Positions 3,470-60,204 of a DNA stretch of 64,000 bases are shown in pieces. Source of the stretch: Escherichia coli. Lineage in GTDB: Bacteria > Pseudomonadota > Gammaproteobacteria > Enterobacterales > Enterobacteriaceae. The notes under the pieces are model-generated. The model saw nothing but the letters and a program-made list of their open reading frames with translations. It had not been told where the DNA came from and made no database searches. The stretch's first letter is position 1. Every line of letters starts with the position of its first letter. The translations under genes and the position numbers were made by a program. Where the stretch lies: NCBI RefSeq assembly GCF_044647545.1, contig NZ_CP172818.1. One strand, written 5' to 3'.

Positions 3470-3618
3470 TTGCGACTACACTCCTCGCTGTTGCTTCATG
3501 GCACAGCGTTAACGCTATGTACATAGCAGCTAAAAAAATGATGAAATAGTCTATCACTTAACTTAATTCACATCACCGCCTGCAAGTATGTGTTATCTGG
3601 CGGATTGAGCAATTTATC

Positions 3619-11090: not shown

Positions 11091-12140
11091 ATGGAAACCC
11101 CTCAACCCGATAAAACGGGCATGCACATTCTGCTCAAGCTGGCCTCGCTGGTGGTGATCCTCGCGGGAATTCACGCAGCGGCAGATATCATTGTGCAGCT
11201 GTTACTGGCGCTGTTTTTTGCCATCGTCCTCAACCCGCTCGTCACCTGGTTTATTCGTCGGGGAGTACAACGCCCCGTTGCCATTACGATTGTGGTGGTG
11301 GTGATGCTGATCGCACTAACCGCGCTGGTCGGCGTACTGGCGGCATCGTTTAACGAATTTATCTCTATGCTGCCGAAGTTTAATAAGGAGCTGACGCGCA
11401 AACTTTTTAAATTGCAGGAGATGTTGCCTTTTCTTAATTTGCATATGTCGCCGGAGCGAATACTGCAGCGGATGGACTCGGAAAAAATGGTTACCTTCAC
11501 CACGGCGCTAATGACCGGGCTTTCCGGGGCAATGGCGAGCGTGCTTTTGCTGGTGATGACCGTAGTTTTCATGCTGTTTGAAGTGCGCCACGTCCCTTAC
11601 AAAATGCGTTTTGCGTTGAATAATCCACAGATTCACATCGCCGGACTACACCGCGCCTTAAAAGGTGTTTCGCACTATCTTGCATTGAAGACACTGCTAA
11701 GTTTATGGACAGGCGTAATCGTCTGGCTGGGGCTGGCGCTAATGGGCGTACAGTTTGCGCTGATGTGGGCAGTACTGGCGTTTTTGCTCAACTACGTGCC
11801 CAATATCGGCGCGGTAATTTCCGCCGTACCGCCAATGATTCAGGTGCTGCTGTTTAATGGCGTTTACGAATGTATTCTGGTCGGCGCATTGTTTTTAGTG
11901 GTCCATATGGTCATCGGCAATATTTTAGAACCACGGATGATGGGCCATCGCCTGGGGATGTCCACCATGGTGGTATTTCTTTCATTGTTAATTTGGGGAT
12001 GGCTGCTCGGCCCGGTAGGGATGCTACTTTCGGTACCATTAACCAGCGTGTGTAAAATCTGGATGGAAACCACCAAAGGCGGTAGCAAACTGGCGATTTT
12101 ACTGGGACCGGGCAGACCGAAAAGTCGATTACCGGGATGA
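11091..12140 (+). CDS. yhhT: AI-2E family (PerM-like) transporter YhhT
   Basis: 349 aa from METPQPDKTG; polytopic membrane protein. Confidence 0.88.
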   Translation: METPQPDKTGMHILLKLASLVVILAGIHAAADIIVQLLLALFFAIVLNPLVTWFIRRGVQRPVAITIVVVVMLIALTALVGVLAASFNEFISMLPKFNKELTRKLFKLQEMLPFLNLHMSPERILQRMDSEKMVTFTTALMTGLSGAMASVLLLVMTVVFMLFEVRHVPYKMRFALNNPQIHIAGLHRALKGVSHYLALKTLLSLWTGVIVWLGLALMGVQFALMWAVLAFLLNYVPNIGAVISAVPPMIQVLLFNGVYECILVGALFLVVHMVIGNILEPRMMGHRLGMSTMVVFLSLLIWGWLLGPVGMLLSVPLTSVCKIWMETTKGGSKLAILLGPGRPKSRLPG

Positions 12141-12194
12141 GGCGACAAGTGTTACGATACGCACTTTCATTTTCCATTAAACGTTGGCCCTGAT

Positions 12195-12782
12195 ATGTAT
12201 CGGATAGTTCTGGGGAAAGTTTCGACCTTAAGCGCAGCTCCTCTGCCACCGGGTTTACGCGAGCAAGCACCGCAAGGTCCACGACGCGAACGCTGGCTGG
12301 CGGGGCGTGCATTGCTTTCGCACACGCTTTCCCCGCTACCGGAGATCATCTATGGCGAACAAGGCAAACCTGCATTCGCGCCGGAAACGCCGCTATGGTT
12401 CAACTTAAGCCATAGCGGTGACGATATCGCCCTGCTGTTGAGCGATGAAGGCGAAGTCGGCTGCGATATCGAAGTGATTCGCCCGCGCGCCAACTGGCGC
12501 TGGCTGGCGAACGCCGTATTCAGCCTTGGGGAACATGCCGAGATGGACGCCGTGCATCCTGATCAGCAACTGGAAATGTTCTGGCGCATCTGGACGCGCA
12601 AAGAAGCCATCGTTAAACAGCGTGGCGGCAGCGCCTGGCAAATCGTCAGCGTAGACAGCACCTATAACTCCTCGCTGTCAGTCAGCCATTGTCAGCTAGA
12701 AAATTTAAGCCTGGCGATCTGCACCCCTACCCCCTTTACGCTCACCGCCGACAGTGTGCAATGGATCGATTCAGTTAACTGA
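12195..12782 (+). CDS. acpT: 4'-phosphopantetheinyl transferase AcpT
   Basis: 195 aa; PPTase-like motifs (FNLSHSGD, WTRKEA). Confidence 0.9.
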   Translation: MYRIVLGKVSTLSAAPLPPGLREQAPQGPRRERWLAGRALLSHTLSPLPEIIYGEQGKPAFAPETPLWFNLSHSGDDIALLLSDEGEVGCDIEVIRPRANWRWLANAVFSLGEHAEMDAVHPDQQLEMFWRIWTRKEAIVKQRGGSAWQIVSVDSTYNSSLSVSHCQLENLSLAICTPTPFTLTADSVQWIDSVN

Positions 12783-12828
12783 TCCGCCCACCCGACTGCC
12801 CATCTATTGATCCAGAACAGGTAATCAG

Positions 12829-12856
12829 TATGACGAATACTTAAAATCGTCATACT
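12829..12856 (+). promoter_or_regulatory. NikR operator GTATGA-N16-TCATAC in the nikA promoter
   Basis: Exact match to the two-half-site NikR operator pattern 37 nt upstream of nikA; possible FNR-like half site TTGAT at 12808. Confidence 0.85.
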
Positions 12857-12892
12857 TATTTCCGCCATCTATTTTAATCCATTGGGGTTACC

Positions 12893-14467
12893 ATGTTCTC
12901 TACACTCCGCCGCACTCTATTTGCGCTGCTGGCTTGTGCGTCTTTTATCGTCCATGCCGCTGCACCAGATGAAATCACCACCGCCTGGCCGGTGAATGTC
13001 GGGCCACTAAACCCGCACCTTTACACGCCTAACCAAATGTTCGCCCAGAGCATGGTTTATGAACCACTGGTGAAATATCAGGCAGACGGTTCGGTGATCC
13101 CGTGGCTGGCAAAAAGCTGGACCCATTCAGAAGATGGCAAAACCTGGACCTTCACCCTGCGTGATGATGTGAAATTCTCTAACGGTGAACCGTTTGATGC
13201 AGAGGCCGCGGCAGAAAACTTCCGCGCTGTGCTCGACAACCGTCAACGTCACGCCTGGCTGGAGCTGGCAAACCAGATTGTTGATGTCAAAGCTCTCAGT
13301 AAAACCGAGCTGCAAATCACCCTGAAAAGCGCCTACTACCCTTTCCTGCAAGAACTGGCCCTGCCCCGTCCTTTCCGCTTTATCGCCCCCTCGCAGTTTA
13401 AAAACCATGAAACCATGAATGGGATTAAAGCGCCGATTGGCACCGGGCCGTGGGTTTTGCAGGAATCGAAACTGAATCAGTACGATGTCTTCGTCCGTAA
13501 CGAAAACTACTGGGGCGAAAAGCCGGCGATTAAGAAGATCACTTTTAACGTCATCCCAGACCCGACTACCCGCGCAGTAGCGTTTGAAACCGGCGATATC
13601 GATCTACTATACGGTAATGAAGGGCTATTACCGCTCGATACCTTCGCCCGCTTTAGCCAGAACTCGGCTTACCACACCCAACTGTCACAGCCGATCGAAA
13701 CCGTGATGCTGGCGCTCAATACTGCCAAAGCCCCCACCAACGAGCTGGCAGTCCGTGAAGCTCTTAATTACGCGGTAAACAAAAAATCGCTGATCGATAA
13801 CGCGTTGTATGGCACCCAGCAGGTCGCCGACACCCTGTTTGCCCCTTCCGTGCCCTATGCCAATCTCGGCCTGAAACCGCGCCAGTACGATCCGCAGAAA
13901 GCAAAAGCGTTGCTGGAACAAGCAGGCTGGACGCTGCCCGCAGGCAAAGACATCCGCGAGAAAAATGGTCAGCCGCTGCGCATTGAACTGTCGTTCATCG
14001 GCACCGATGCGTTAAGCAAATCAATGGCCGAAATCATTCAGGCTGATATGCGCCAGATTGGCGCGGATGTCACGCTGATCGGCGAAGAAGAGAGCAGTAT
14101 CTATGCTCGTCAGCGCGACGGTCGTTTTGGCATGATTTTCCACCGTACCTGGGGCGCGCCATACGATCCACACGCCTTCCTGAGTTCAATGCGCGTACCG
14201 TCGCACGCTGACTTCCAGGCACAGCAAGGTTTAGCCGACAAGCCACTGATTGATAAAGAGATTGGCGAAGTGCTGGCGACACACGACGAAACACAACGTC
14301 AGGCACTGTATCGCGACATTCTGACCCGTCTGCATAACGAGGCGGTTTATCTGCCCATCAGCTATATCTCAATGATGGTGGTTTCAAAACCGGAACTGGG
14401 TAACATCCCCTACGCGCCGATCGCCACCGAAATCCCGTTCGAACAGATTAAACCGGTGAAACCTTAA
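12893..14467 (+). CDS. nikA: Nickel ABC transporter periplasmic binding protein NikA
   Basis: 524 aa with signal peptide; first gene of nik operon. Confidence 0.96.
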
Positions 14468-15407
14468 TGTTGCGTTATGTATTACGCCGCTTTCTGCTGC
14501 TGATCCCGATGGTGCTCGCCGCCTCGGTGATCATTTTTCTGATGCTGCGCCTCGGCACCGGCGACCCGGCGCTCGATTATCTGCGTCTGTCTAACCTGCC
14601 GCCGACGCCGGAAATGCTGGCTTCTACCCGCACCATGCTGGGGCTGGATCAGCCGTTGTACGTGCAGTACGGAACCTGGTTGTGGAAAGCGCTGCATCTT
14701 GACTTTGGTATCTCATTCGCCAGCCAACGCCCGGTGCTGGACGATATGCTGACCTTCCTGCCCGCCACGCTGGAGCTGGCGGGTGCGGCGCTGGTATTAA
14801 TTCTGCTCACTTCCGTGCCGCTCGGCATCTGGGCGGCGCGCCATCGCGACCGCCTGCCGGATTTCGCCGTGCGTTTTATCGCGTTTCTTGGCGTGTCGAT
14901 GCCTAACTTCTGGTTGGCGTTTTTACTGGTGATGGCATTTTCAGTGTATCTGCAATGGCTGCCCGCGATGGGTTACGGCGGCTGGCAGCACATCATTTTG
15001 CCTGCGGTTTCCATCGCTTTTATGTCGCTGGCGATTAACGCGCGTCTGCTGCGCGCCAGTATGCTGGACGTCGCCGGTCAGCGTCATGTGACCTGGGCGC
15101 GACTGCGCGGCCTGAACGACAAACAGACCGAACGCCGCCACATCCTGCGCAATGCCTCGCTGCCGATGATCACCGCCGTGGGGATGCACATTGGCGAACT
15201 GATTGGCGGGACGATGATTATCGAAAACATCTTTGCCTGGCCGGGCGTCGGGCGCTATGCGGTGTCGGCGATTTTTAACCGTGACTATCCAGTGATCCAA
15301 TGCTTTACGCTGATGATGGTGGTGGTTTTTGTGGTCTGTAATTTGATTGTCGATTTGCTCAACGCCGCGCTGGACCCGCGTATTCGTCGTCATGAAGGAG
15401 CGCACGC

Positions 15408-15411
<4 letters not shown>
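14467..15411 (+). CDS. nikB: Nickel ABC transporter permease NikB
   Basis: 314 aa; start overlaps nikA stop. Confidence 0.96.
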
Positions 15412-18235
<2,824 letters not shown>

Positions 18236-18278
18236 CTATTAAAATTAAGTTCGTACGTCTGTAAAAAAGGATTTTACG

Positions 18279-21200
18279 ATGAGCGGAAAACCGGCGGCGC
18301 GTCAGGGCGACATGACGCAGTATGGCGGTAGCATTGTTCAGGGTTCTGCCGGGGTGCGTATTGGTGCCCCCACCGGCGTGGCCTGTTCAGTGTGCCCCGG
18401 CGGGGTGACGTCCGGTCATCCGGTCAATCCGCTGCTGGGTGCAAAGGTCCTTCCCGGCGAAACCGACCTTGCCCTGCCCGCCCCGCTGCCGTTCATCCTC
18501 TCCCGCACCTACAGCAGTTACCGGACAAAAACGTCCGCGCCGGTGGGGAGCCTCGGCCCCGGCTGGAAAATGCCTGCGGATATCCGCTTACAGCTGCGCG
18601 ATAACACACTGATACTCAGTGATAACGGCGGCAGAAGCCTGTATTTTGAGCACCTGTTTCCCGGTGAGGACGGTTACAGCCGCAGCGAGTCACTCTGGCT
18701 GGTGCGCGGCGGCGTGGCGAAACTGGATGAAGGTCACCGGCTGGCCGCACTCTGGCAGGCGCTGCCGGAAGAGCTTCGCCTGAGTCCGCATCGTTATCTG
18801 GCGACGAACAGTCCACAGGGGCCGTGGTGGGTACTCGGCTGGTGTGAGCGGGTGCCGGAGGCGGATGAGGTGCTGCCTGCGCCGCTGCCGCCGTACCGGG
18901 TACTGACCGGGCTGGTGGACCGCTTCGGGCGCACACAGACGCTCCACCGCGAAGCCGCCGGTGAATTCAGCGGCGAAATCACCGGCGTGACGGATGGTGC
19001 CGGGCGTCACTTCCGGCTGGTACTGACCACGCAGGCGCTGCGGGCAGAAGAGGCCCGGCAGCAGGCCATTTCCGGCGGGACGGAACCGTCCGCTTTTCCT
19101 GATACCCTGCCGGGTTACACCGAATATGGCCGGGACAACGGTATCCGCCTGTCCGCCGTGTGGCTGACGCACGACCCGGAATATCCGGAGAATTTACCTG
19201 CCGCGCCGCTGGTGCGCTATGGCTGGACGCCACGCGGCGAACTGGCGGTGGTGTATGACCGCAGCAATACACAGGTGCGCAGCTTTACTTACGATGATAA
19301 ATACCGGGGCCGGATGGTGGCGCACCGTCACACGGGCCGGCCGGAAATCCGTTACCGTTACGACAGTGACGGGCGGGTGACAGAACAGCTAAACCCGGCA
19401 GGCTTAAGCTACACCTATCTGTTATGAGCAAAACCGCATCACCATCACCGACAGCCTGAACCGCCGTGAAGTCCTGCATACGCAGGCGAAGGCGGCCTGA
19501 AGCGGGTGGTGAAAAAGGAACACGCGGACGGCAGCGTCACGCAGAGTCAGTTTGACGCGGTGGGCAGGCTTAAGACACAGACGGATGCCGCAGGCCGGAC
19601 AACAGAATACAGCCCGGATGTGGTGACGGGCCTCATCACGCGCATCACCACGCCGGATGGCAGGGCATCGGCGTTTTACTATAACCACCACAGCCAGTTA
19701 ACGTCAGCCACCGGGCCTGACGGGCTGGAAATACGCCGGGAATATGATGAATCCGGCCGTCTGATTCAGGAAACCGCCCCTGACGGCGATATCACCCGCT
19801 ACCGTTATGATAATCCACACAGTGACTTCCCCTGCGCAACGGAAGATGCCACCGGCAGCCGGAAAACCATGACGTGGAGCCGTTACGGTCAGTTGCTGAG
19901 CTTCACCGACTGTTCCGGCTACCAGACCCGTTATGACCATGACCGCTTCGGGCAGATGACGGCGGTGCACCGCGAGGAAGGCCTGAGCCAGTGCCGCGCA
20001 TACGACAGCCGTGGACAGTTAATTGCCGTGAAAGACACGCAGGGCCATGAAACGCGGTATGAATACAACATCGCCGGTGACCTGACCGCCGTCATTGCCC
20101 CGGACGGCAGCAGAAACGGGACACAGTACGATGCGTGGGGAAAGGCCATCCGTACCACGCAGGGCGGGCTGACCCGCAGTATGGAATACGATGCTGCAGG
20201 ACGGGTCATCCGCCTGACAAACGAAAACGGCAGCCACACCACCTTCCGTTACGATGTACTCGACCGGCTGATACAGGAAACCGGCTTTGACGGCCGCACA
20301 CAGCGTTACCACCACGACCTGACCGGCAAACTTATCCGCAGCGAGGATGAGGGGCTGGTCACCCACTGGCACTATGACGAAGCAGACCGCATCACGCAGC
20401 GAACGGTGAATGGTGAAACCGCAGAACAGTGGCGGTACGACGAACGCGGCTGGCTGACACAAATCAGCCATCTCAGCGAAGGGCACCGGGTGACGGTGCA
20501 TTACGGGTATGATGAGAAAGGCCGCCTGACCGGTGAGCGCCAGACGGTGCATCATCCGCAGACGGAAGCACTGCTCTGGCAGCATGAGACCAGACATGCG
20601 TACAACGCGCAGGGGCTGGCGAACCGCTGTATACCGGACAACCTGCCCGCCGTGGAATGGCTGACTTATGGCAGTGGTTACCTGGCAGGGATGAAACTCG
20701 GCGACACACCGCTGGTGGAGTACACCCGCGACCGCCTGCACCGGGAAACGCTGCGCAGCTTCGGCCGTTATGAACTCACCACCGCTTATACCCCTGCCGG
20801 GCAGTTACAGAGCCAGCACCTGAACAGCCTGCAGTATGACCGCGATTACACCTGGAACGACAACGGCGAACTCATTCGCATCAGCAGCCCGCGCCAGACC
20901 CGGAGTTACAGCTACAGCGACTCCGGCAGGCTGACCGGCGTTCACACCACCGCAGCGAACCTGGATATCCGCATCCCGTATGCCACGGACCCGGCAGGTA
21001 ACCGCCTGCCCGACCCGGAGCTGCACCCGGACAGCACCCTCAGCATGTGGCCGGATAACCGTATCGCCCGTGACGCGCACTATCTTTACCGGTATGACCG
21101 TCACGGCAGGCTGACGGAGAAAACCGACCTCATCCCGGAAGGGGTTATCCGCACGGATGATGAGCGGACTCACCGGTACCATTACGACAGCCGGCACCGG

Positions 21201-22514
21201 CTGGTGCACTACACGCGGACACAATATGCAGAGCCGCTGGTCGAAAGTCGCTATCTTTACGACCCGCTGGGCCGCAGGGTGGCAAAACGGGTGTGGCGGC
21301 GTGAACGGGACCTGACGGGCTGGATGTCGCTGTCACGGAAACCGGAAGTGACCTGGTACGGCTGGGACGGCGACCGCCTGACCACGATACAGAACGACAG
21401 AACCCGCATCCAGACGGTTTATCAGCCGGGGAGCTTCACACCACTCATCAGGGTCGAAACCGCCACCGGTGAGCAGGCGAAAACGCAGCGCCGCAGCCTG
21501 GCGGATGCGCTTCAGCAGTCCGGCGGCGAAGACGGTGGCAGTGTGGTGTTCCCGCCGGTGCTGGTGCAGATGCTCGACCGGCTGGAAAGTGAAATCCTTA
21601 CTGACCGGGTGAGTGAGGAAAGCCGCCGCTGGCTGGCATCGTGCGGCCTGACGGTGGCGCAGATGCAAAACCAGATGGACCCGGTGTACACGCCGGCGAG
21701 AAAAATCCACCTGTACCACTGCGACCATCGCGGCCTGCCGCTGGCGCTTGTCAGCACGGAAGGGGCAACAGAATGGTGCGCAGAATACGATGAGTGGGGC
21801 AACCTGCTGAATGAAGAGAACCCGCACCAGCTGCAACAGCTTATCCGCCTGCCGGGTCAGCAGTATGATGAGGAGTCAGGCCTGTATTACAACCGCCACC
21901 GCTATTATGACCCGCTGCAGGGGCGGTATATCACTCAGGATCCGATTGGGCTGAAGGGGGGATGGAACCTGTATGGATATCAATTGAATCCGATATCAGA
22001 CATCGACCCCCTGGGTTTATCTATGTGGGAGGATGCAAAATCGGGGGCATGTACTAATGGTCTTTGCGGCACACTATCCGCTATGATAGGTCCAGATAAG
22101 TTTGATTCTATAGATAGCACCGCATATGACGCCTTAAATAAAATAAATAGCCAATCTATTTGCGAAGATAAAGAGTTCGCTGGTTTAATATGTAAGGATA
22201 ATAGTGGCAGATATTTCTCAACAGCACCTAACCGAGGGGAAAGAAAAGGATCATATCCATTCAATAGCCCTTGCCCTAATGGTACTGAGAAAGTATCAGC
22301 TTATCATACTCATGGTGCAGATAGTCATGGAGAATATTGGGACGAAATATTTTCAGGCAAAGATGAGAAAATAGTTAAAAGTAAAGATAACAATATCAAG
22401 TCATTTTATTTGGGCACGCCCAGTGGTAATTTTAAAGCAATAGATAACCACGGGAAGGAAATAACAAACGGAAAAGGATTACCTAATGTCTGCAGAGTTC
22501 ATGGTAATATGTAA
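18279..22514 (+). pseudogene. rhsB: Rhs core protein with C-terminal toxin tip (RhsB-like), interrupted by a compensated frameshift at about 19422..19484
   Basis: Two same-frame ORFs (18279..19427, 19506..22514) with YD-repeat content, PxxxxDPxGL core end at about 21945..22020 and an AT-rich tip; two in-frame TGA codons between them. Confidence 0.85.
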
Positions 22515-22869
22515 AAAAATATTTTTTAGGAACTGTGTCATTGTATCTTTGTTTGTTTTTACATACAACACATGGGCGCAGTGTAATAATAATATTAAAA
22601 TAATGCGCAAGTATGAAAGTGAGGGTAAATATACCGTTAGAAATTTGGTTAAAAATAAAGCTATAGCATTGGAATTAGCTGAGATATATGTTAAGAATCG
22701 TTATGGGCAGGATGCCGCAGAAGAAGAAAAACCATATAAAATCACTGAGTTAACAACAAGTTGGGTTGTTGAAGGCACCATTCACTCAGACCAAATTGCT
22801 GGTGGGGTTTTTATTATAGAAATAGGCAAAAATGATGGGGTAATTCTGAATTTTGGCCACGGAAAATAA
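22486..22869 (+). CDS. yhhH: Putative Rhs immunity protein YhhH
   Basis: 127 aa AT-rich ORF overlapping the rhs stop; alternative start at 22501. Confidence 0.7.
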
Positions 22870-22973
22870 GTATGTAAGGATAATCAAACATCGTGTGCGC
22901 TGATGGCAGAGTAGGTGGAGGACTCCAGACAGTCAAACGATAAAAAAAGATAGCCTTTATGGAGGCTCCTGCA

Positions 22974-23357
22974 ATGTCAAATACATACCAGAAAAGAAAG
23001 GCAAGTAAAGAGTATGGTTTATATAATCAATGTAAGAAACTAAATGATGATGAATTATTTCGCTTACTTGATGATCACAATTCCTTGAAAAGGATTTCAT
23101 CTGCCAGAGTATTACAGTTAAGAGGTGGGCAAGACGCTGTTAGATTGGTAATTGAGTTCTGCTCTGATAAAAATTATATCCGTAGAGATATCGGAGCATT
23201 TATACTCGGGCAAATAAAAATTTGCAAAAAATGCGAAGATAATGTGTTTAATATTTTGAACAATATGGCATTGAATGATAAGAGCGCTTGCGTTCGAGCT
23301 ACGGCAATCGAGTCAACGGCCAGGGAAAGATCATCAAAAGTACACTTTTTGTACTAA
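22974..23357 (+). CDS. Hypothetical protein, possibly an orphan Rhs-associated immunity protein (helical-repeat-like)
   Basis: ORF 22959..23357; likely start 22974 after GGAGG; AT-rich, between yhhH and H-repeat transposase. Confidence 0.4.
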   Translation: MSNTYQKRKASKEYGLYNQCKKLNDDELFRLLDDHNSLKRISSARVLQLRGGQDAVRLVIEFCSDKNYIRRDIGAFILGQIKICKKCEDNVFNILNNMALNDKSACVRATAIESTARERSSKVHFLY

Positions 23358-47109: not shown

Positions 47110-47195
47110 CCGTTAGATAAGAGCTCTCTCACTCCAGCCAGAGCCACCAACTCAGGGCTGGAAAGTAAAAAACCGACGCAAAGTCGGTTTTTTTA
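47110..47195 (+). ncRNA. agrB: AgrB-like small RNA (second tandem copy)
   Basis: Second copy of the same unit with identical terminator hairpin (47173..47194). Confidence 0.6.
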
Positions 47196-47344
47196 CGTCC
47201 TGATTCAGGTCTTTTCCAATAAATACCCAACTCTTAACTCACATCTATTACCTTCCTCTGCACATACGCATTCGTTAAACCATATATGTTTTTGACTTAT
47301 CCGCTTCGAAGAGAGACACTAAGTGCAACAATCAGGAGCGCAAT

Positions 47345-47698
47345 ATGTCATTTCTGTTACCCATCCAACTCTTCAAAATTCTTGCCGATGAAACCCGTTT
47401 GGGCATCGTTTTACTGCTCAGCGAGCTGGGAGAGTTATGCGTCTGCGATCTCTGCACTGCCCTCGATCAGTCGCAGCCCAAGATCTCCCGCCATCTGGCA
47501 TTACTGCGTGAAAGTGGGCTATTGCTGGACCGCAAGCAAGGAAAGTGGGTTCATTACCGTTTATCGCCGCATATTCCAGCATGGGCGGCGAAAATTATTG
47601 AGCAGGCCTGGCGATGCGAACAGGAAAAGGTTCAGGTGATTGTCCGTAACCTCGCCAGACAAAATTGTTCCGCAGACAGTAAGAATATTTGTAGTTAA
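47345..47698 (+). CDS. arsR: Arsenical resistance operon repressor ArsR
   Basis: 117 aa; ArsR/SmtB HTH with metal site ELCVCDLC. Confidence 0.95.
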   Translation: MSFLLPIQLFKILADETRLGIVLLLSELGELCVCDLCTALDQSQPKISRHLALLRESGLLLDRKQGKWVHYRLSPHIPAWAAKIIEQAWRCEQEKVQVIVRNLARQNCSADSKNICS

Positions 47699-47752
47699 AA
47701 AATTTATCTAAACACATATGAATATTCGAATGTGTTTTATCCAGGAGGCATG

Positions 47753-49042
47753 ATGTTACTGGCAGGCGCTATTTTTGTCCTGACCATCGTATTGGTTATC
47801 TGGCAGCCGAAAGGTTTAGGCATCGGCTGGAGTGCGACACTGGGCGCCGTACTGGCGTTAGTTACTGGCGTGGTCCATCCGGGCGATATTCCGGTGGTGT
47901 GGAATATCGTCTGGAACGCGACGGCGGCGTTTATCGCCGTCATTATCATCAGCTTGCTGCTGGATGAGTCCGGCTTTTTTGAATGGGCTGCGCTGCACGT
48001 CTCACGCTGGGGCAATGGGCGCGGTCGCTTGCTGTTTACCTGGATTGTCCTGCTCGGTGCTACCGTTGCAGCTCTGTTTGCCAATGATGGCGCGGCGCTT
48101 ATTTTGACACCGATTGTCATCGCCATGCTGCTGGCTTTAGGGTTCAACAAAGGCACTACGCTGGCGTTTGTGATGGCGGCCGGATTCATTGCCGATACCG
48201 CCAGCCTGCCGCTTATTGTCTCTAATCTGGTGAATATCGTTTCGGCAGATTTCTTTGACCTCGGCTTTCGCGAATACGCCTCGGTGATGGTGCCGGTGGA
48301 TATCGCTGCAATACTGGCTACCCTGGTGATGTTGCATCTCTATTTCCGCAAAGATATTCCGCAGAACTACGACATGGCGCTGCTGAAATCTCCCGCAGAA
48401 GCGATTAAAGATCCTGCTACGTTCAAAGCTGGCTGGGTTGTTTTACTGCTTCTGCTGGTGGGATTTTTCGTCCTGGAACCGCTCGGCATTCCGGTAAGCG
48501 CCATTGCGGCAGTGGGCGTGCTGATATTATTTGTCGTCGCTAAACGCGGTCATGCGATTAATACGGGTAAGGTGCTACGCGGTGCGCCCTGGCAGATTGT
48601 CATCTTCTCGCTCGGCATGTATCTGGTGGTTTATGGCCTGCGCAATGCCGGACTAACGGAATATCTTTCTGGCGTACTCAACGTGCTGGCGGATAACGGC
48701 CTGTGGGCGGCGACGCTCGGTACCGGATTCCTCACCGCCTTCCTCTCTTCTATTATGAACAATATGCCGACGGTACTGGTTGGCGCGTTGTCCATTGATG
48801 GCAGCACGGCGTCTGGTGTCATCAAAGAGGCGATGGTTTATGCCAACGTGATTGGCTGCGATTTGGGGCCGAAAATTACACCGATTGGTAGCCTGGCAAC
48901 GCTGCTCTGGCTGCACGTACTTTCGCAGAAGAATATGACTATCAGCTGGGGATATTACTTCCGTACAGGGATTATCATGACCCTGCCGGTGCTGTTTGTG
49001 ACGCTCGCCGCGCTGGCGCTTCGTCTCTCTTTCACTTTGTAA
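47753..49042 (+). CDS. arsB: Arsenite efflux pump ArsB
   Basis: 429 aa from [10 protein letters not shown] (AGGAGG RBS 47743..47748); ORF track start 47732 is an extension. Confidence 0.93.
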
Positions 49043-49054
49043 TGAGATACTGAT

Positions 49055-49480
49055 ATGAGCAACATTACTATTTATCACAACCCAGCCTGCGGCACGTCGC
49101 GAAATACGCTGGAGATGATCCGCAACAGCGGCACAGAACCGACCATTGTTTATTATCTGGAAACCCCACCGACGCGTGATGAACTGGTCAAACTCATTGC
49201 CGATATGGGGATTTCCGTACGCGCGCTGCTGCGTAAAAACGTCGAGCCGTATGAGGAACTGGGCCTTGCAGAAGATAAATTTACTGACGATCGGTTAATC
49301 GACTTTATGCTTCAGCACCCGATTCTGATTAATCGCCCGATTGTGGTGACGCCACTGGGAACTCGCCTGTGCCGCCCTTCAGAAGTGGTGCTGGAAATTC
49401 TGCCAGATGCGCAACAACGCGCGTTCACCAAGGAAGATGGCGAGAAAGTGGTTGATGAGGCGGGTAAGCGCCTGAAATAG
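49055..49480 (+). CDS. arsC: Arsenate reductase ArsC (glutaredoxin-coupled)
   Basis: 141 aa; catalytic Cys in HNPACGTSRN. Confidence 0.95.
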   Translation: MSNITIYHNPACGTSRNTLEMIRNSGTEPTIVYYLETPPTRDELVKLIADMGISVRALLRKNVEPYEELGLAEDKFTDDRLIDFMLQHPILINRPIVVTPLGTRLCRPSEVVLEILPDAQQRAFTKEDGEKVVDEAGKRLK

Positions 49481-49529
49481 CTAAAGGGGGATATGCCCCC
49501 ACGGTTTTACAAAACTCGCTTTATTTATG

Positions 49530-49635
49530 TCCGATGCGACGCTGCGCGTATTATCCCGACCTACAAAAGTTATGAAAATTCGATTTCAGAATAGATGTTA
49601 TTTGTAGGCCTGACAGGCAGTAGGGCATCAGGCGA
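49530..49635. repeat. Pair of inverted REP-like elements (BIME-like)
   Basis: GTCCGATGCGACGCTGCGCGTATTATCCCGACCTACA and inverted TGTAGGCCTGACAGGCAGTAGGGCATCAGGCG resemble the REP consensus. Confidence 0.6.
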
Positions 49636-50653
49636 TCAAAATTTTGATGCTATTTACACAGTATGCCGCGTACAAACAAACCAAAAAACAAAACCCCGAG
49701 AAAAAACAAAAAACAAAAAAAAAAAAAAAAATTCCAATTAAGCTTCACAGACAAATTTACTAAAAACGAATAACCAATAGAAGAGAAGCAATGCTTAGTT
49801 AATCAGCCATTCAGAAACCCCCACTTAACCAATACCAAACTTAATATTAACCCATAAAAAACACCACCAAAACTCAACATTTAAAGATGTACTGCCATAT
49901 CTTTTTAGGGCATAATATACTCTTTTATTTATCTTTATTCCCTCAGATGATTCCCTCATCACAAATACCCCTCCCACCCATACGCCGTGTTTATCCCTAT
50001 ATACCCAACATTATCCCTCTCATCTGTTTGATACAAAAGAATTCTACATTAACATTAACCACCCCAACCACGAATGATATTACTTAAATCAATCAAAACC
50101 GATGATATTCATAGTTACTATACTATCTACTATTACTCAAAGCTATTTTAAAAACCACATAAACTATAAATATATCCTTATCCTCTGAAAAACATAAAGA
50201 TACCTTAAAAAAACAAATAATTAACACTTTATAATTTATGACGGACTCATAATCATCAACGACAATCACCACCAATCATTTCCAATTTTACAAACAATCT
50301 CTTCTCATATCATCCTTTAAACACTTTTTTAAACAAAAAAACACACTTTAACCTGGCTCATTATTACACATCTAAAACATCACAAAAATATCACTTCACA
50401 CACTATCGGAGAACATCATAACTTCTTAAAATGAGCGCTTTTTGATAGTTGTTAACGTTTTCCTTTACGATACTATCACTGCCCTTTTTTTATACACAAA
50501 TATTACCTGGTGGAAATGAAAGGGAAGTTAAAGGTAATTATATCAGGAAGATATGACGCATTGTGTTTATTTCCGCGTAGAAGAAAATCCATTCCTGCTC
50601 TAATTCTCCGATTTACAAAAATTTAGCGAAATAGATGAACAATAAGGAATGTT

Positions 50654-51874
50654 ATGTCAATTGACTTTACCCCAGGTATGATAAATACATATCACGGCGA
50701 TATTTATAACCGCACAACAGATACCGACAATGCTAAAACACCAGACACACCGATGTGGCCTTGTGATAATCAGGAAGAACAGCAACCCATTAATTTTTCA
50801 TTGTCTGAAGAAGGATATAACGCTGAACAATTTGATTTAGCGCAACAACAACTCCAACAAATTAATGCGTGCCACACGAACACCACATATACAAATGCAG
50901 ACTACTCAAAAGTTGTGGCTCAACTTGTAAAACTTATTAATAACATTGAAACGATAAGTTCGACACCACTTACGCAACAGACACAATCAATACTTAATCA
51001 GATTAATAACATTAGATACGAAAAGAATAAAAACTCTGAATCTAAAATCATTGTTGTCTTTAATCCTAAGCCCAATAAGCCAATCATAACTAAAATTCTC
51101 GTAGAAGAGGGAATACCAGTAAGATTCAGTGTCCAAACCGTTTCTTCCGAAAATAAAAATTTTTCTGGGCAACGAACTGATTTACCAACTGATATAAAAG
51201 ATATTCAACGCTTGTACCAAAAAATGACAAGGTTGTATATTGAGCACAGTGAAAATGAAAACAGGATGAAAGTCTTTGCTGGAACCAACTTTATTGATTT
51301 CAATATGACAGGACAGGACCTGTCCGGGTTCGTTCTAACCTTGTCAAGGTTTTATTTCGAAGATTTACTTAATGTAAACTTCACTGACGCAAATTTTGAT
51401 ACTATTTTTTCACATAAGGAAAACCCCATCACAAATTTACATAAAGATGAACAATATGTTGACAAACAAATCAATGGTTTATTTTCAACATTATTAACCA
51501 TTAATGACAACTCTTTAAGAGCAAAAGCGGAAATTGTTTCGACAATAATAGAATTATTAGAAACCAGGGTAAACAATCTTTCATACAACGACATAATAAA
51601 ATATCAGCAAGAATTCCAAAAAGAATGTTACAAGCAAGTTAAAGATTTTACAACACCCTCTCGATACAATAGAATTAAAAAATGGGCACAAATGTCTGAA
51701 TATCAATTCGAAATATTTCAACACGATACGTTTCATCTTAAAAAAATGTCATACGCACCTTATTTAAAGAGATCGCTACCTGATGAAAAAACTATAAATT
51801 ATGGGGTGGAAATAGAAACACCAACTGGCAAAAGAATTCGCTTATCAAATCATTACCAGAATATAATCCCATAA
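50654..51874 (+). CDS. yhiS: Uncharacterized protein YhiS-like with pentapeptide-repeat segment (uninterrupted)
   Basis: 406 aa AT-rich ORF; no IS element inside. Confidence 0.75.
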
Positions 51875-52119
51875 TATTGAACATTAGCGCTTTATAATCA
51901 TTGAATAAAAATAGATTTTATGCACCTTTAAAAAAAGGCTATTTTATGGGGCGATGGATACTCATGTCACGCCCCAAAATTAACAGAATTAAACTAAACA
52001 GAAGGGATATAAACATCAGACAGGTTTACGTTACTATCAGGCATATCGCCTCAGAATCAGATGAAAACTATAAAGAAATATCTATTATGGTTTTAATATT
52101 TGTTGATAAGGATAGTAAC

Positions 52120-52686
52120 ATGAACATGACAAAAGGTGCACTCATCCTCAGCCTTTCATTTTTGCTTGCCGCATGTAGTTCAATTCCGCAAAATATCAAA
52201 GGCAATAACCAACCTGATATTCAAAAAAGTTTTGTTGCTGTTCATAACCAGCCGGGGTTATATGTTGGTCAACAAGCGCGCTTTGGTGGGAAGGTTATCA
52301 ACGTTATCAATGGCAAAACGGATACGTTGTTAGAAATCGCTGTATTACCGTTGGATAGCTATGCGAAGCCTGATATTGAAGCCAACTATCAGGGCCGACT
52401 GCTCGCCAGACAAAGCGGCTTCCTTGATCCAGTGAACTATCGTAATCACTTTGTTACCATCCTCGGTACCATTCAGGGTGAACAACCTGGCTTTATCAAT
52501 AAAGTCCCGTATAACTTCCTCGAAGTGAATATGCAGGGCATCCAGGTGTGGCATTTGAGAGAAGTGGTTAATACCACCTATAACCTGTGGGATTACGGCT
52601 ATGGTGCATTCTGGCCGGAACCGGGCTGGGGTGCGCCTTACTACACCAACGCGGTGAGTCAGGTAACACCTGAGCTGGTCAAATAA
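52120..52686 (+). CDS. slp: Outer membrane starvation lipoprotein Slp
   Basis: 188 aa from MNMTKGALILSLSFLLAACSS (lipobox); ORF track start 51901 is an extension. Confidence 0.92.
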   Translation: MNMTKGALILSLSFLLAACSSIPQNIKGNNQPDIQKSFVAVHNQPGLYVGQQARFGGKVINVINGKTDTLLEIAVLPLDSYAKPDIEANYQGRLLARQSGFLDPVNYRNHFVTILGTIQGEQPGFINKVPYNFLEVNMQGIQVWHLREVVNTTYNLWDYGYGAFWPEPGWGAPYYTNAVSQVTPELVK

Positions 52687-52838
52687 CACCACCGAAAGAT
52701 GCAGATGCTTTCTCAGCATCTGCATCATGCATTACATCAAATTAATACACAGTAAGCTAATTATTATTATAAGCCCTGTCCTGTTAATTACCTTTGGCAA
52801 ACTGATTATAAAGTTAATGTCCGCACCAGGAGTCGGTT

Positions 52839-53369
52839 ATGTTTCTTATAATTACCAGGGATACGATGTTCTTCACTGCGATGAAAAACATTCTGAGTAA
52901 AGGTAATGTCGTTCATATACAGAACGAAGAAGAGATCGACGTAATGTTGCATCAGCATGCCTTCGTCATTATTGATACATTAATGAATAATGTATTTCAT
53001 TCTAATTTGCTCACTCAAATTGAACGATTAAAACCTGTCCATGTGATTATTTTCTCTCCCTTTAATATTAAACGCTGCCTGGGGAAAGTACCGGTGACCT
53101 TTGTTCCGCGAACTATCACCATCATCGACTTTGTCGCACTCATCAATGGCAGTTACTGCTCTGTGCCTGAAGCGGATGTGTCCCTTTCGCGCAAGCAGCA
53201 TCAGGTTCTGAGCTGCATTGCGAATCAAATGACAACGGAAGATATTCTGGAGAAACTGAAAATATCGCTAAAAACGTTCTACTGCCATAAACACAATATC
53301 ATGATGATCCTCAATCTTAAGCGGATCAATGAGTTGGTACGCCATCAGCATATTGATTATCTGGTGTGA
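52839..53369 (+). CDS. dctR: LuxR-family transcriptional regulator DctR (YhiF)
   Basis: 176 aa with C-terminal LuxR-type HTH. Confidence 0.9.
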   Translation: MFLIITRDTMFFTAMKNILSKGNVVHIQNEEEIDVMLHQHAFVIIDTLMNNVFHSNLLTQIERLKPVHVIIFSPFNIKRCLGKVPVTFVPRTITIIDFVALINGSYCSVPEADVSLSRKQHQVLSCIANQMTTEDILEKLKISLKTFYCHKHNIMMILNLKRINELVRHQHIDYLV

Positions 53370-53399
53370 ATATTCAGGGTACTGGTAACGGTATCCGGG

Positions 53400-55092
53400 T
53401 TAATGTGTGCGATATGTCCCAGTATCGGTGTCTTTGCCGCGGGTACGGTTATAGGCCACATCAAGGCTAAACAGATCAGTGGTATATTTCGTCATTACAT
53501 CCCAGCCCCAGATTTTGGCGTTCGGGACGTTATACGACATAGTTGTCGCCGCCGCGAAATCGACGGTCGTGGAGATGTAATCCTTCGCTTTGGTATCAAA
53601 GTAGCTGGCTTTAAATTCCAGAGCATCATTGGACAACATCAGGTCATCAAAACGCAGCCCAAAACCGTACTCCTGAGTTTTTCGTTAGTTTCCGGACGTG
53701 CAGCGTGGCACCCAATAGTTGGTATAGAAGCGACCAATCGAGAAGTGCTTAGAATCGTTATACATTTCGCCCATCGTCGGGGCGCGGAATACCTGGGCAT
53801 ATGAGCCAAATAACATCAGCCAGTTGGTCGGGTTGATAGTCATCCCCGCACGAGATGACCATTTGTCAGCATCAACATCTTTGTAGCCGTCGCTGCTACC
53901 GCGATAACTGTCATAGCGGGTTCCGCCAAGCAGAGTAATCGGCAGATCGCGTAAGGTGATCTCATCCTGTAGCCAGCCGGAGCTAAAATAGATTTTGCTT
54001 GCGGGAAGCCCGTCGTCGCGCCGCCCGGATGTTGTTCCTGACGATAATACTCACCGCCATATGTCAGTAAGTGAGAAGCGAAACTGTCGGCAAATAAGTC
54101 CGGAACGGTTCTCCAGCCTGGCTCCTTTTGTTATCTGTTCACGATACTCGCCGGAACTCCCCGTGTTTTGCGCATTAATACGGACTTCCGACCAGTAAAT
54201 TTTTGCATCTGCATTTAACCAGTCGTTGCCCTGTGGGGCGAGTTTATAAGAAAGCTGCGCATCGCGTTGAATTGTTGAACGATCAACCATCGGGTTGCTG
54301 CTATCGAGAAACTGCTCAACAGTCTGCGGATTTTTTGGTTCACGCGCGTCGTTGTTGTAGTAACGCACTAAACCGCTCAGAGACTGGGCTGAAATCAATT
54401 TGCCAGGTCCCTTTCGCCAGCATGTTATTAATGGACTCGTCATTCGGCGCGGTTTCACCATTGCTCTGGCGTAAATCACCCCGATCGCGACTGGACCAGG
54501 CCACAATACCATCCAGATTTTCAGTTCGCCCAAACGCGCTCGCGCCTAATCCCAGGCTATGGTCCCCCGTGCCGCCAGTACCAAAGACACGAAAACCACT
54601 GCTTTGTCCTTCCTGCAATAAATCTTTTGCATCGACCGTATCGTAGGAGATCACTCCACCCAGCGCGCCACTGCCATACAGTAATGCTGAAGGTCCGCGA
54701 ACGATCTCAACACGCTTGATCAGCGCCGGATCGAGAAAAGTGCCATTCAGGTGTCCGGTATCCGTTCCCTGGCGAACACCATCGACAAGAACCAGCACGC
54801 CGCGATGATCATAGCCACGCATATTTACATCCTGACCGTTGGTTCGTCCGGTACCATCAAGAGTAATTCCAGGAACATGACGCAGCAAATCAGTGGCTGG
54901 AGTCGCCGTTTGATTTTCAGGAGCGGAAGTGTCGATAACGCTGACCATCATAGGCGCTTCGAAGGAACTACGTGCATTCCCGGTTGCCGTAACGGTCATG
55001 GTTTCAGTAGCAAAAGCAAATGTTGGCAAGGTGGCAGAAACAGCCAAAGCCAACAAACTCAAACGCAACGAGGTAAATTGCGGACGTGACAT
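53400..55092 (-). pseudogene. chuA: TonB-dependent heme receptor ChuA/ShuA-like, frameshifted and 3'-truncated
   Basis: N-terminal ORF 54340..55092 has signal peptide, TonB box ETMTVTA and plug domain; continues in other frames (54051..54533, 53400..53639); about 1.7 kb remains of an expected ~2 kb. Confidence 0.8.
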
Positions 55093-55375
55093 AGCGATTC
55101 TCCATGAGGAAAATAAAATGCTGGCTGCCTGGTTAATTGCAGTGCTGGCGAAAAATAAATTTATTTACAATTCAAATGATTAGATATCACCACGGGAAGC
55201 TATTAGCGTATATATCCCGTAAAATTGCCGAATATTTCTGATAATTCAGCAAAAGCACGCCCTCTTTGTCAGGCAAAGTAGTACGCCACGTCTGAAGTGA
55301 AGAGTGCTGTGCGTTTCCCTTACAAAAGATATGATTTTGTTATCCATGATGTCATATTTTGTTAAACTCAAACGT

Positions 55376-55394
55376 GATAATGAGAATTATTATC
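55376..55394. promoter_or_regulatory. Fur-box-like operator in the chuA-chuT divergent region
   Basis: GATAATGAGAATTATTATC versus consensus GATAATGATAATCATTATC (2 mismatches). Confidence 0.6.
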
Positions 55395-55722
55395 GATCAA
55401 TTTTTTATGATCAAGCTTTTTTAACCGCCATTAACACAATAAACAGGGATTATGGAATCTTATCCAGCATCAGAAAACCATCCTGTGTTTATGGCTATCC
55501 CCCACAACCTCATCACAAAACGTTGTCGTTAACAGTGATAATTTTCTCTTCTCTTTGCTCTGCAAGCCGCGATATCTCCGGGTTCTCAGCTTTTTCCCGC
55601 GCTGAAATTTAATCGGTAACAAGAACGTTCACGACGAAGCATCTTGATAAAAATCAAAAATAAATACGCTTGTAACGCCGTGCGTATTGAATCGACGGTT
55701 GTATTTCATATATAACTCAAAT

Positions 55723-55741
55723 GATAATCATGATCATTCTC
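55723..55741. promoter_or_regulatory. Fur-box-like operator upstream of the chuT remnant
   Basis: GATAATCATGATCATTCTC, close to the Fur consensus. Confidence 0.55.
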
Positions 55742-55845
55742 AATTTGATAAGGGTTCTCATATTATGCCAAGGATCATCACCAGGCCGTTTCTTTTTTCC
55801 CCACTGACGTTATGTATTTCAGCCGTGGCCTCTGCCGCGAAGACC

Positions 55846-56674
55846 ATGGTAAAACGAAAAAAATTGTTTACGGCATTACTGGCTCTTAGCTGGACTTTTA
55901 GCGTAACGGCTGCGAACGTATCGTGGTCGCAGAGATCGCTGACGGAGCTAATCTACGCGATGGGCGCTGGCAAACGCGTGGTTGGTGTCGATGAAACGAC
56001 ATCTTATCCACCAGAAACCGCCAGACTGCCGCATATTGGTTACTGGAAACAACTCAGCAGCGAAGGCATTTTGTCACTTCGCCCGGATAGCGTAATTACC
56101 TGGCAGGATGCAGGACCGCAAATTGTGCTCGAACCGACTGCGGCGCAAGAGTCAACGTCGTCACTCTGCCGCATATTTCCGCCACCCTTGAGCAGATGTA
56201 CGCCAACATTCGCCAACTGGCAAAAACGTTACAGGTTCCTGAACAAGGCGAGGCGCTGGTGACACAATCAACCAACGCCTGGAGCGAGTACAGCAAAACG
56301 TGGCGGCCAAAAAAGCCCCGGTTAAAGCCATGTTTATTCTCTCCGCAGGCGGAAGTGCGCCACAGGTTGCCGGTAAAGGCAGCGTCGCGGACGCCATTCT
56401 TTCGCTTGCCGGAGCAGAAAACGTCGCTACCCACCAGCAGTACAAAAGCTACAGCGCGGAATCGCTGATTGCGGCTAACCCTGAAGTGATTGTCGTCACC
56501 TCACAAATGGTCGATGGCGATATTAATCGGCTACGTTCTATTGCCGGAATTACCCACACTGCCGCATGGAAAAACCAGCGCATTATCACCGTTGATCAAA
56601 ACCTGATTCTGGGAATGGGTCCGCGTATTGCTGATGTCGTTGAGTCTTTACACCAGCAGCTTTGGCCGCAATAA
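55846..56674 (+). pseudogene. chuT: Periplasmic heme-binding protein ChuT-like, frameshifted
   Basis: Three frame segments (55687..56262, 56196..56468, 56300..56674) jointly encode a signal peptide and a class III periplasmic binding protein. Confidence 0.75.
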
Positions 56675-56693
56675 ATGGATTTAGATCAGACGA

Positions 56694-58027
56694 ATGAACA
56701 CAAATAACACCCTGGATCTCACGCCACATTTTGCTTTAGACGGTGATGCGCCATTTAAAGACAGGCGCGCCATGATGCGTTCGTGGGGCCATTCCAGTTG
56801 CCAAAGAGCAACTGACACAGACCTGGCAAGAGATGCTCAATCAAACGGTATCACCACGTAAGCGACTGGTTTATCTACACATTCCTTTTTGTGCGACACA
56901 CTGCACGTTTTGTGGTTTTTATCAGAACCGTTTTAATGACGATGCGTGTGCTCATTATACCGACGCCCTGATTCGTGAAATAGAAATGGAAGCAGACAGC
57001 GTATTGCATCAGTCTGCCCCATCCACGCGGTCTATTTCGGTGGCGGTACGCCTTCCGCGCTTTCAGCACACGATTTCGCCAGAATCATCACCACATTACG
57101 AGAAAAGCTGCCACTGGCCCCTGATTGTGAAATCACTATTGAAGGCCGGGTACTGAATTTTGACGCTGAGCGAATCGATGCTTGCCTTGATGCTGGAGCA
57201 AACCGCTTCTCAATTGGTATTCAGTCGTTTAACAGCAAAATCCGCAAGAAAATGGCCCGCACCTCGGATGGCCCAACCGCTATTGCGTTTATGGAAAGCC
57301 TGGTCAAACAACTGATGCAGCGGTGGTCTGTGACCTGCTGTTTGGTCTGCCGGGTCAGGATGCGCAAACCTGGGGAGAAGATCTCGCTGTACCACGATAT
57401 CGGTCTCAACGGCGTCAATTCTCTATGCGCTCAATGTTAGCCCAATACACCGCTGGGCAAAGCCGTGGAAAATCGGCATACTACCGTGCCCTCTCCGGCA
57501 GAACGTCGCGATCTTTACCTGCAAGGGTGTGATTTTATGGACGATGCCGGTTGGCGCTGCATCAGTAACAGCCACTGGGGCCGTACCACACGCGAACGCG
57601 ATCTCTATAACCTGCTGATTAAACAAGGTGCCGATTGCTGGCCTTTGGTTCCGGAGCCGGCGGTTCGATTAATGGTTACTCCTGGATGAACGAACGCAAT
57701 CTTCAGACCTGGCATGAATCCGTCGCGGCAGGCAAAAAAACCAGCTGCATGATGATCATGCGTAACGCCGAACGTAATGCGCAATGGCGTCATACCTTGC
57801 AGTCAGGTGTTGAAACAGCGCGCGTACCGCTGGATGAACTTACACCACATGCCGAAAAACTCGCGCCGTTACTGGCTCAATGGCACCAAAAAGGCTTAAG
57901 TCGCGATGCTTCAACTTGCCTGCGGCTGACTAATGAAGGTCGTTTCTGGGCAAGCAATATTTTGCAGTCTCTTAATGAACTAATTCAGGTACTTAATGCG
58001 CCAGCGATTGTGCGTGAAAAACCATAA
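56694..58027 (+). pseudogene. chuW: Radical-SAM heme-degrading enzyme ChuW/HemN-like, multiply frameshifted
   Basis: Fragments 56833..57156 (CxxxCxxC as CATHCTFC), 57252..57689, 57635..58027 in different frames. Confidence 0.7.
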
Positions 58028-58039
58028 CAGGAGTGATTT

Positions 58040-58534
58040 ATGAGCCATGTCTCGTTGCAGAATTTTGAAAACGGAGCCGGACGGTACGCTGGAGGTGGTA
58101 GCCGAACAATACAACACCACACTGCTGGAAGTAGTGAAAGATCTGCCCTCCTCTACCATAGTGTCAGGCGATAAATTCGATACTGTCTGGGATACCGTCT
58201 GCGAATGGGGCAACGTCACCACGTTAGTACATACTGCCGATGTAATCCTCGAATTTAGCGGCGAATTCTGCCTTCGGGTTTCCACCGCCACGGCTATTTC
58301 AACCTACGCGGAAAGCACGGCATGTCCGGGCATATGAAAGCAGAAAACTGCACACATATTGCCTTGATCGAACGTAAATTTATGGGCATGGACACCGCCT
58401 CTATTCTCTTTTTCAATAAGGAAGGCAGCGCCATGCTGAAAATCTTCCTCGGCAGGGATGACCATCGTCAGCTCCTGAGCGAACAAGTCAGCGCCTTCCA
58501 TGCTCTGGCAGCATCGTTAAAGGAACACGCCTGA
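58040..58534 (+). pseudogene. chuX: ChuX-like heme utilization protein, frameshifted
   Basis: ATG 58040 (MSHVSLQ), then ORFs 58047..58337 and 58322..58534 in shifted frames. Confidence 0.65.
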
Positions 58535-59162
58535 TGACGCCGTGGCTACTCTTTTGGCGCAGGCGGAAAAGGTGTGGGTGCCAGAACGCTTGAACTGGCG
58601 CTGGCAGCAACGTCCAGTGGCGAGTACTATCGTTCGTCATGCCGATGCCGCCACGAAACTGGCGCAACAAGGCGTACAGGTTTTTACAGGCGACGCCTGT
58701 GATGCCAGCGTAACCTGACGGATGCTTGCCACGCAGCTCGGCCCGGATGCGCTTGTGGTTCAACAATGGGCGGAGCTCAGGATTATCTGGCGCACGAACA
58801 GTGATTGATGAGGCCGAAAAGGCCGGCATCAGTCGCATGATTCTGGTGACCTCTTTGGGATGCGGCGATAGCTGGCCATTTTTATCGGAGCGAGCAAAGG
58901 CTGCGTTTGGTCAGGCGGTACGGGAAAAAACGCTGGCGGAAAGCTGGTTGCAAACCAGCCAGCTTGATTACGCCATTCTCCGCCCTGGCGGTCTGCTGGA
59001 TGCGGGCGGCAACAGGGCAAAGCACAACGGATACAAAATCAGGAGTGTCATGGTTTTGTTCACCGTGCCGATGTCGCCGCACATATCCATGAACTGGCAA
59101 ATGCGCCAGCACTTAACCAGCAGGTCTACAGTCTGATTGAACCGGACCTGAAACCGGCGTGA
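58535..59162 (+). pseudogene. chuY: ChuY-like NAD(P)-binding protein, frameshifted
   Basis: Rossmann-like FGAGGKGVGARTLELALAA visible only in a shifted frame; C-terminal fragment ORF 58726..59136. Confidence 0.6.
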
Positions 59163-59210
59163 TACCCCGGCGCGGCATGTCCGCGCCGTAATGTCGTAAC
59201 GGAGTTTTGC

Positions 59211-60204
59211 GTGCTCAAGGATTCACTCTCTTCCGCCAGGGTCTACTGGGGCTATCACTATTATTGCTAGCTCTGGTGCTGTTCGGTGCCAGTCAGGGGA
59301 GCGTAAAGAATCAGTTTTGATGCCCTTTTTGATGAGGAATACCGCCATATCTGGCTCAATATTCGTCTACCACGGGTTTTGCTGGCGGTGCTGGTAGGTG
59401 CAGCGTTGGCAACCGCAGGGGTAATTATGCAGGGGCTTTTTCGCAACCCAATGGCTGACCCTGGATTACTTGGCGTCAGTAGCGGTTCTGCATTAATGGT
59501 TGGCGTTGCTATTGTGCTGCCCTTCTCCTTCCCAGTGGTGCTGGTGCTCTATGAGCAAATGGTGTTTGCCATTGCCGGAAGTTTAGTGGTCTGCACCATC
59601 ATTTTTCTCATCACGCAGCGCCATCGCGATGGCAGCATGATGCAATTATTACTCGCCGGTATCGCCATCAATGCCCTGTGCGGCGCAGCGATCGGCATCC
59701 TGAGCTATATCGGCGATGAGCAGCAGCTACGACAACTCACATTGTGGATGATGGGCAATCTTGGACAGGCGCAATGGCCGACGTTATTGGTTGCCAGTTC
59801 ATTCATCCTACCGGCCATTATCGCAACAACTTGTCTCGCCGGAACGCTGAATTTACTGCAGCTCGGTGATGAAGAAGCCCATTACCTCGGCGTGAACGTT
59901 AAGCGTAAACGCCAGCAATTACTGTTAGTGAGCTCACTGCTCGTTGGTGCCGCCGTATCGGTAAGCGGCATTATCGGCTTTATTGGCCTGGTGATCCCGC
60001 ATCTGATTCGCATGACTACCGGAGCAAATCACCGCTGGCTAATCCCTTGCTCCGCCCTCGCCGGAGCCTGTTTATTGCTGATGGCAGACACGCTTGCCCG
60101 CACGCTGGTACAGCCAGCAGAAATGCCCGTGGGATTATTAACCAGCCTGCTTGGTGGTCCTTATTTTATGTGGTTGATTCTGCGCAACCCGGAGGATCAC
60201 ATGA
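59211..60204 (+). pseudogene. chuU: Heme ABC transporter permease ChuU-like (FecCD family), frameshifted at N-terminus and fused in frame to downstream ATPase fragment
   Basis: ORF 59379..60386 carries FecCD-like TM segments and reads through into the ATPase N-terminus. Confidence 0.7.

Follow-up and report, generated by a model that had tools for sequence, protein, structure and literature searches.

The stretch at 49501-50338, between arsC and yhiS, is very probably a badly rebuilt version of a variable segment and not faithful natural DNA, judged from its comparison with related genomes. It lies within the window, that is, the whole 64,000-nt stretch of Escherichia coli DNA analysed here. 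A sequence-only reading had drawn attention to about 1 kb of AT-rich, apparently non-coding DNA with a run of 17 A at this place; most likely the feature as described there is not real. An ST648 genome would have been rebuilt on a K-12 template, possibly by reference-guided consensus calling or polishing from error-prone reads. Sequence present in the template would have come out perfectly, whereas the rebuild would have failed for ST648 DNA that is missing from K-12.

The spacer between arsC and yhiS

The last gene before the anomalous stretch is arsC (49055..49480, plus strand), a 141-aa ORF. Its stop codon ends at 49480 and the ATG of yhiS (50654..51874, plus strand, 406 aa, lacking 3 bp at 51395) lies at 50654, which leaves a spacer of 1173 bp. 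The window is 100% identical to the ST648-type genome CFSAN061771 over 47194-49500, including the 20 nt which follow the arsC stop (49481..49500, plus strand; CTAAAGGGGGATATGCCCCC) and which thus are ST648-type and faithful. At 49500 this identity stops. On the plus strand there follow a damaged K-12-type REP pair together with the start of a K-12-type remnant of a regulator 3' end (49501..49663), an A/C-rich filler that includes the A17 run and sits inside the K-12-type remnant (49664..49731), the 3' half of an ArsP permease gene with the spacer that follows it, depleted of most G and some of the T (49732..50338), and finally the faithful, AT-rich yhiS upstream region (50339..50653), the counterpart of a K-12 arsC/yhiS 'promoter island'. 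The segment between 49500 and 50339 is unmatched in 5,426 complete E. coli genomes. A close match to 49664-50338 is absent from this set, in which the best hits are gapped alignments of 67.6% to the ArsP permease gene.

The unusual composition reported for this spacer was confirmed. The longest ORF between arsC and yhiS has 66 aa (49887-50087), as had been claimed, and over 49700-50400 the DNA is indeed poor in GC (0.26-0.37) with an A/C-rich top strand (GC skew -0.48 to -0.78). The plus strand of 49640-50653 contains 407 A, 292 T, 225 C and 90 G, and in 300-bp windows G falls to a minimum of 3.3% around 50105. In natural comparator E. coli loci, about 203 kb in all, every base accounts for at least 8.3% and the longest homopolymer has 9 nt; set against these, the low G content and the A17 run are far beyond chance. 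The tract itself is there, but at 49715-49731, six bases to the left of the 49721-49737 first given for it. The only other long homopolymer in the window is an A10 run at 24616, inside another anomalous junction. The anomalous composition breaks off sharply at 50338. Thus, the description of about 1 kb as anomalous is correct up to this position but not for the final 315 bp (50339-50653), which are ordinary AT-rich yhiS upstream DNA.

For 49501-49663, the best match in the 5,426 genomes is of the K-12 type, at 84.8%. The differences from K-12 consist of G deletions, G-to-C changes and A/C insertions, while TGCTATTTACACAGTA matches the K-12-type sequence at 16 of 16 positions. The REP pair which had been recognised after arsC can be located at 49517-49636 (90% to K-12, 9 gap positions), but its first hairpin is lost: with -14.0 kcal/mol, against -20.5 kcal/mol in the K-12 copy, it no longer forms. 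Pairing is retained in the second REP. In ST648 genomes, arsC-yhiS is free of REPs. Furthermore, 49501-49740 carries K-12-specific alleles (ACACAGTA, GAGA, ATTCCAATTA) at sites where genomes with an intact regulator differ, and it is enclosed by ST648 flanks. Neither K-12-type nor ST648-type sequence has a counterpart to the filler at 49664-49731, and the collections searched gave no match for it; the filler holds 2-5 G per 50-bp bin.

In ST648 relatives, the arsC-yhiS interval is occupied by a gene for an ArsR/SmtB-family regulator (minus strand) and a gene for a 333-aa permease (plus strand), the latter matching the Pfam family ArsP_1 (PF03773, E 1.3e-52). This arsR-arsP segment measures 1693 bp in ST648 genomes, compared with 838 bp in the window. 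The stretch 49732-50338 is collinear with 3231-4010 of the CFSAN061771 locus sequence, and relative to this reference it shows 121 deletion blocks, mostly of 1-2 nt, and 14 substitutions. The deletions removed 73% of the reference G, 28% of the T, 15% of the C and 4% of the A, G retention being uniformly low until the abrupt boundary at 50338. Of the ArsP protein only residues 212-236 (25 aa) are still readable by tblastn, with a stop codon among them, and an intact ArsP_1 permease ORF (about 330 aa, PF03773) was not found in the window, where the longest ORF at this place is the one of 66 aa. A search for a foreign origin yielded no plasmid or phage match except arsP itself.

Deleting a G:C pair in duplex DNA cannot tell the two strands apart. 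A loss restricted to the G of one strand is therefore impossible by duplex mutation and resembles a biased read-out of one strand. Moreover, over 34 kb the flanks are free of substitutions, and a lineage of this kind cannot have gathered 121 independent deletions within a mere 780 bp. By these sequence criteria, the loss pattern in 49732-50338 is different from that of natural gene decay.

The faithful 3' part, 50339-50653, is 100% identical to CFSAN061771 and 84-100% identical across 5,410 genomes; to its K-12 counterpart it shows about 88-91% identity, and homology to K-12 picks up again at 50320-50360. A published set of 78 'promoter islands' includes the K-12 arsC/yhiS spacer and lists it as bound by H-NS in every ChIP study (Panyukov & Ozoline 2013, PMC3661553 Table 1). 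In addition, a 2026 preprint mentions yhiS as one of the StpA/H-NS sites. The AT richness of the DNA ahead of yhiS and its binding by H-NS in K-12 are thus already known, and they are the only real biology at this place. The suggestion of an H-NS nucleation region accordingly finds published ChIP backing for the K-12 spacer, to which 50339-50653 is the faithful counterpart, but the rest of the stretch is without such support. By analogy, binding of H-NS is plausible only for this 3' part.

Deviations elsewhere in the window

Gene order and gene content in the window follow K-12 (rhsB-yhhH-yhhI present, hicAB absent, a REP pair after arsC), while the core bases are all ST648. The comparison with Ecol_881, a strain of ST648, shows 0 mismatches in 11831-18216, 24649-49500 and 61007-64000, and downstream of the damaged spacer perfect ST648 identity returns at 50339-53369 and again at 61007-64000. 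A comparison of the whole window with K-12 left four intervals without a collinear match, 18214-18261, 24617-24688, 49664-50319 and 53379-61014, each of which coincides with or falls inside one of four anomalous stretches.

Two of these stretches are the rhs junctions, 18214-18261 and 24612-24688, with an A10 run at 24616-24625, deletions of G, G and T, and words blended from the ST648-type and the rhsB-type spacers. Judged from the sequence, this is the same style of damage as at arsC-yhiS. Neither junction sequence was found in any genome of the collection. The nikR stop codon is lost through a 1-nt deletion at 18214 (GATTGA to GATTG-G), so that NikR gains 7 residues; a protein with this 140-aa sequence is on record nowhere.

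Between the junctions, the place of the ST648 hicAB pair is taken by an rhs element, made up of rhs, an immunity gene resembling yhhH and an ISEc1 H-repeat. Over 19460-23323, which takes in the toxin tip and the immunity gene of 127 aa, this element differs very little from the ST648 copy at the rhsA locus (yibF-mtlA), about 135 kb away. The 5' part of the element, 18338-19460, is mosaic in structure and includes unique variants; a pair of frameshifts, +T and -G, is found at 19423/19487. The differences in this element are natural-looking and biased towards third codon positions. Hence, not all unusual features of the window are noise.

The fourth stretch is the chu haem-uptake island (53370-61015). 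Directly after the dctR stop, a 1394-bp deletion removes chuS and the 3' end of chuA; the remainder shows 62 mismatches and 71 gap openings relative to ST648, and all of its genes are frameshifted. The last of these differences lies 10 nt before K-12 homology resumes. On the plus strand of the window, purine transitions outnumber pyrimidine transitions by 31 to 6, whatever the orientation of the gene (p = 4e-5). A mismatch-repair mutator or pseudogene decay was considered for this island and rejected in view of this strand asymmetry and the flanks with 0 mismatches. The island alleles are specific for ST648, with 62 mismatches to Ecol_881 compared with 163 to CFSAN061771.

Smaller scars are located where K-12 and ST648 differ in structure. 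In yhiS, a TTA deletion at 51395 falls precisely on TTAG, the target of the IS5 insertion which interrupts yhiS in K-12. A unique C-to-T change was seen 30 nt upstream of it, at 51365, within a GATC site. The 406-aa yhiS product is not on record. In a DUF4049 (yhiJ/yhiL-family) gene, one C flanked by T runs is missing at 32013, which would cause a frameshift; at this site K-12 has 19 extra nt relative to ST648. Two 30-32-mers and five window-specific proteins were absent from all public collections searched, so that no independent copy backs the sequence.

This distribution is what a rebuild on a K-12 template should leave behind: errors occur only in segments absent from the template, and both the IS5 target site and the 19-nt indel carry scars. 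At arsC-yhiS the damaged REP pair of the template would have been kept and an A/C filler with a spurious A17 run added, after which the 3' half of the permease gene would have been rendered with most G and many T under-called. The underlying natural state would then be an accessory arsR-arsP module or a remnant of it, followed by the AT-rich yhiS upstream region. We know of no documented case with the exact order of loss G >> T > C > A, and the link to polishing artefacts is one that we infer. On the PacBio RS, T and G shared the green laser, which would fit a joint loss of G and T. The literature on this instrument confirms the two-laser design only, with one green and one red laser. A rebuild on a K-12 template does not obviously explain the chu island: these 7.6 kb are absent from K-12 and yet were recovered at 98.6%.

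Alternative explanations

It is unlikely that the sequence is a purely in silico product or edit, in which a generative DNA model or a simulated decay filled the accessory segments and no real molecule was sequenced. Such an origin could account for the blending of two natural haplotypes at a scale of 10-50 nt, for the drift into low-complexity A/C runs and poly-A, and for window-specific proteins and k-mers that are in no collection searched. However, the core is exact over tens of kb, and the chu island tracks the ST648-specific alleles of Ecol_881 (62 mismatches versus 163 to CFSAN061771). The scars at the K-12 IS5 site and the 19-nt indel suit a rebuild from a template and are harder to obtain from free generation. 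One variant, a generative model that is given a prompt and continues freely, was rejected, as perfect ST648 identity is back at 50339-53369 and 61007-64000.

Still less probable is a real, strain-specific degenerated arsR-arsP pseudogene, brought about by a strand-specific process which removes G and some T, that now serves as an AT-rich, H-NS-coated spacer upstream of yhiS. The sequence-only reading had offered a decayed gene as one possibility, and this is right insofar as the stretch is collinear with an intact arsR-arsP module at the same locus and retains the 25-aa ArsP fragment. K-12-type genomes have a natural old remnant at this place (55 bp at 83.6% and 17 bp at 94%), the AT-rich DNA of the locus is H-NS-bound in K-12, and a simple scan found 9 promoter-like sites, against 4.5 +/- 2.0 in shuffled sequence. 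Decay in duplex DNA should, however, produce at least as many substitutions as indels, no strand-specific loss of a base, and a divergence matching that of the flanks. Instead, 121 deletion blocks stand against 14 substitutions, 73% of G but 15% of C is lost, which duplex mutation cannot yield, and the flanks have 0 substitutions in 34 kb; the damage is confined to DNA that K-12 lacks. The natural K-12-type remnant is balanced in composition (G 72, C 76). Furthermore, the stretch is absent from the 5,426 genomes as well as from metagenome and genome collections, and its boundaries, like the other deviations in the window, track the structural differences between K-12 and ST648. Long-term natural pseudogene decay was therefore rejected on the deletion excess, the G-only strand bias and the 0-mismatch flanks.

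We consider it very improbable that the DNA is real and that a strand-specific process deletes G and some T, singly or in small groups, from silenced accessory DNA and spares the core genes next to it. The stretch could in principle also represent a rare real haplotype that has been sequenced nowhere else. An evolutionary intermediate between the K-12-type and the arsP-type arrangement was suggested by the shared words TGCTTAGTTA and ATTCCAATTA, but no such haplotype exists in the 5,426 genomes; a further shared 12-mer, AAGATACCTTAA, is not positionally homologous. The idea of two decaying read tails that meet midway is unsupported on the right side, where G stays low up to the abrupt edge at 50338.

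The least probable of the explanations is a dedicated functional element, be it an H-NS nucleation site or curved DNA, an RNA, or a phase-variable A17 tract that controls yhiS. The low GC content (0.26-0.37), the H-NS binding of the homologous K-12 spacer and a number of promoter-like sites about 2 sd above shuffles, obtained with a simple scan and not with the published PlatProm criterion, would be consistent with it. No RNA could be supported, as there were no Rfam hits at E <= 1, no terminators and no folding signal on either strand (z-scores -0.33 and +0.49). The proposed curvature did not hold up either: the A-tracts lack a helical phasing of 10-11 bp, and the maximal AA/TT power was 0.33, below the shuffle mean of 0.57 and exceeded by 78% of the shuffles. 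As to slippage in the A17 tract, no homologous tract exists in the 5,426 complete E. coli genomes, so that there is nothing to vary between isolates. The tract is located about 920 bp upstream of the yhiS ATG, outside any ORF, in filler that no other genome has; neither a position within an ORF or promoter spacer nor a length polymorphism, as typical of phase-variable homopolymers, was found.

Consequences and comparison with known systems

Anyone who trusted the stretch as it stands would see, at the edge of the acid-fitness island, an AT-rich regulatory element of a new kind or an A17 tract prone to hypermutation. The comparison points instead to a reconstruction error over an ordinary accessory arsR-arsP module, and no biology should be built on this stretch. 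Its practical value is mainly as a warning, since the rhs junctions, the chu island and the extended nikR appear corrupted as well and would produce false pseudogenes or novelties in any scan. The accessory segments of the window have to be regarded as unreliable.

Several known systems resemble the stretch in part. With the arsR-arsP module, which follows arsRBC in ST648 and in many further E. coli, it shares the locus and exact words of up to 26 nt. It differs from this module in having no ORF, no protein detectable with Pfam, no regulator gene and no 5' half of the permease gene, and the remainder is devoid of 73% of its G.

The likeness to the K-12-type spacer lies in the K-12-type alleles of 49501-49663 and in ATTCCAATTA; both are AT-rich and may share an excess of promoter-like sites. 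Promoter islands are by definition AT-rich segments, 300 bp or longer, in which promoter-like sites are very densely packed. The K-12-type spacer is, however, 628 bp long, balanced in G and C and equipped with an intact REP hairpin, whereas that of the window has 1173 bp, is starved of G and contains arsP sequence which K-12 lacks. Within the K-12 arsC-yhiS spacer, 2852-2935 of its locus sequence appears as an old, heavily deleted arsR-arsP remnant, with 55 bp at 83.6% to the regulator 3' end (CFSAN061771 2340-2394) and 17 bp at 94% to arsP (3366-3382). This lets us conclude that the K-12 'promoter island' adjoins, or partly covers, a dead arsenic-resistance module.

A further parallel is found with the artefacts of reference-guided consensus calling or polishing, with which the window shares a perfect core, errors in template-absent segments, scars at template indels and at the IS5 site, and damage that is dominated by deletions and asymmetric between the strands.
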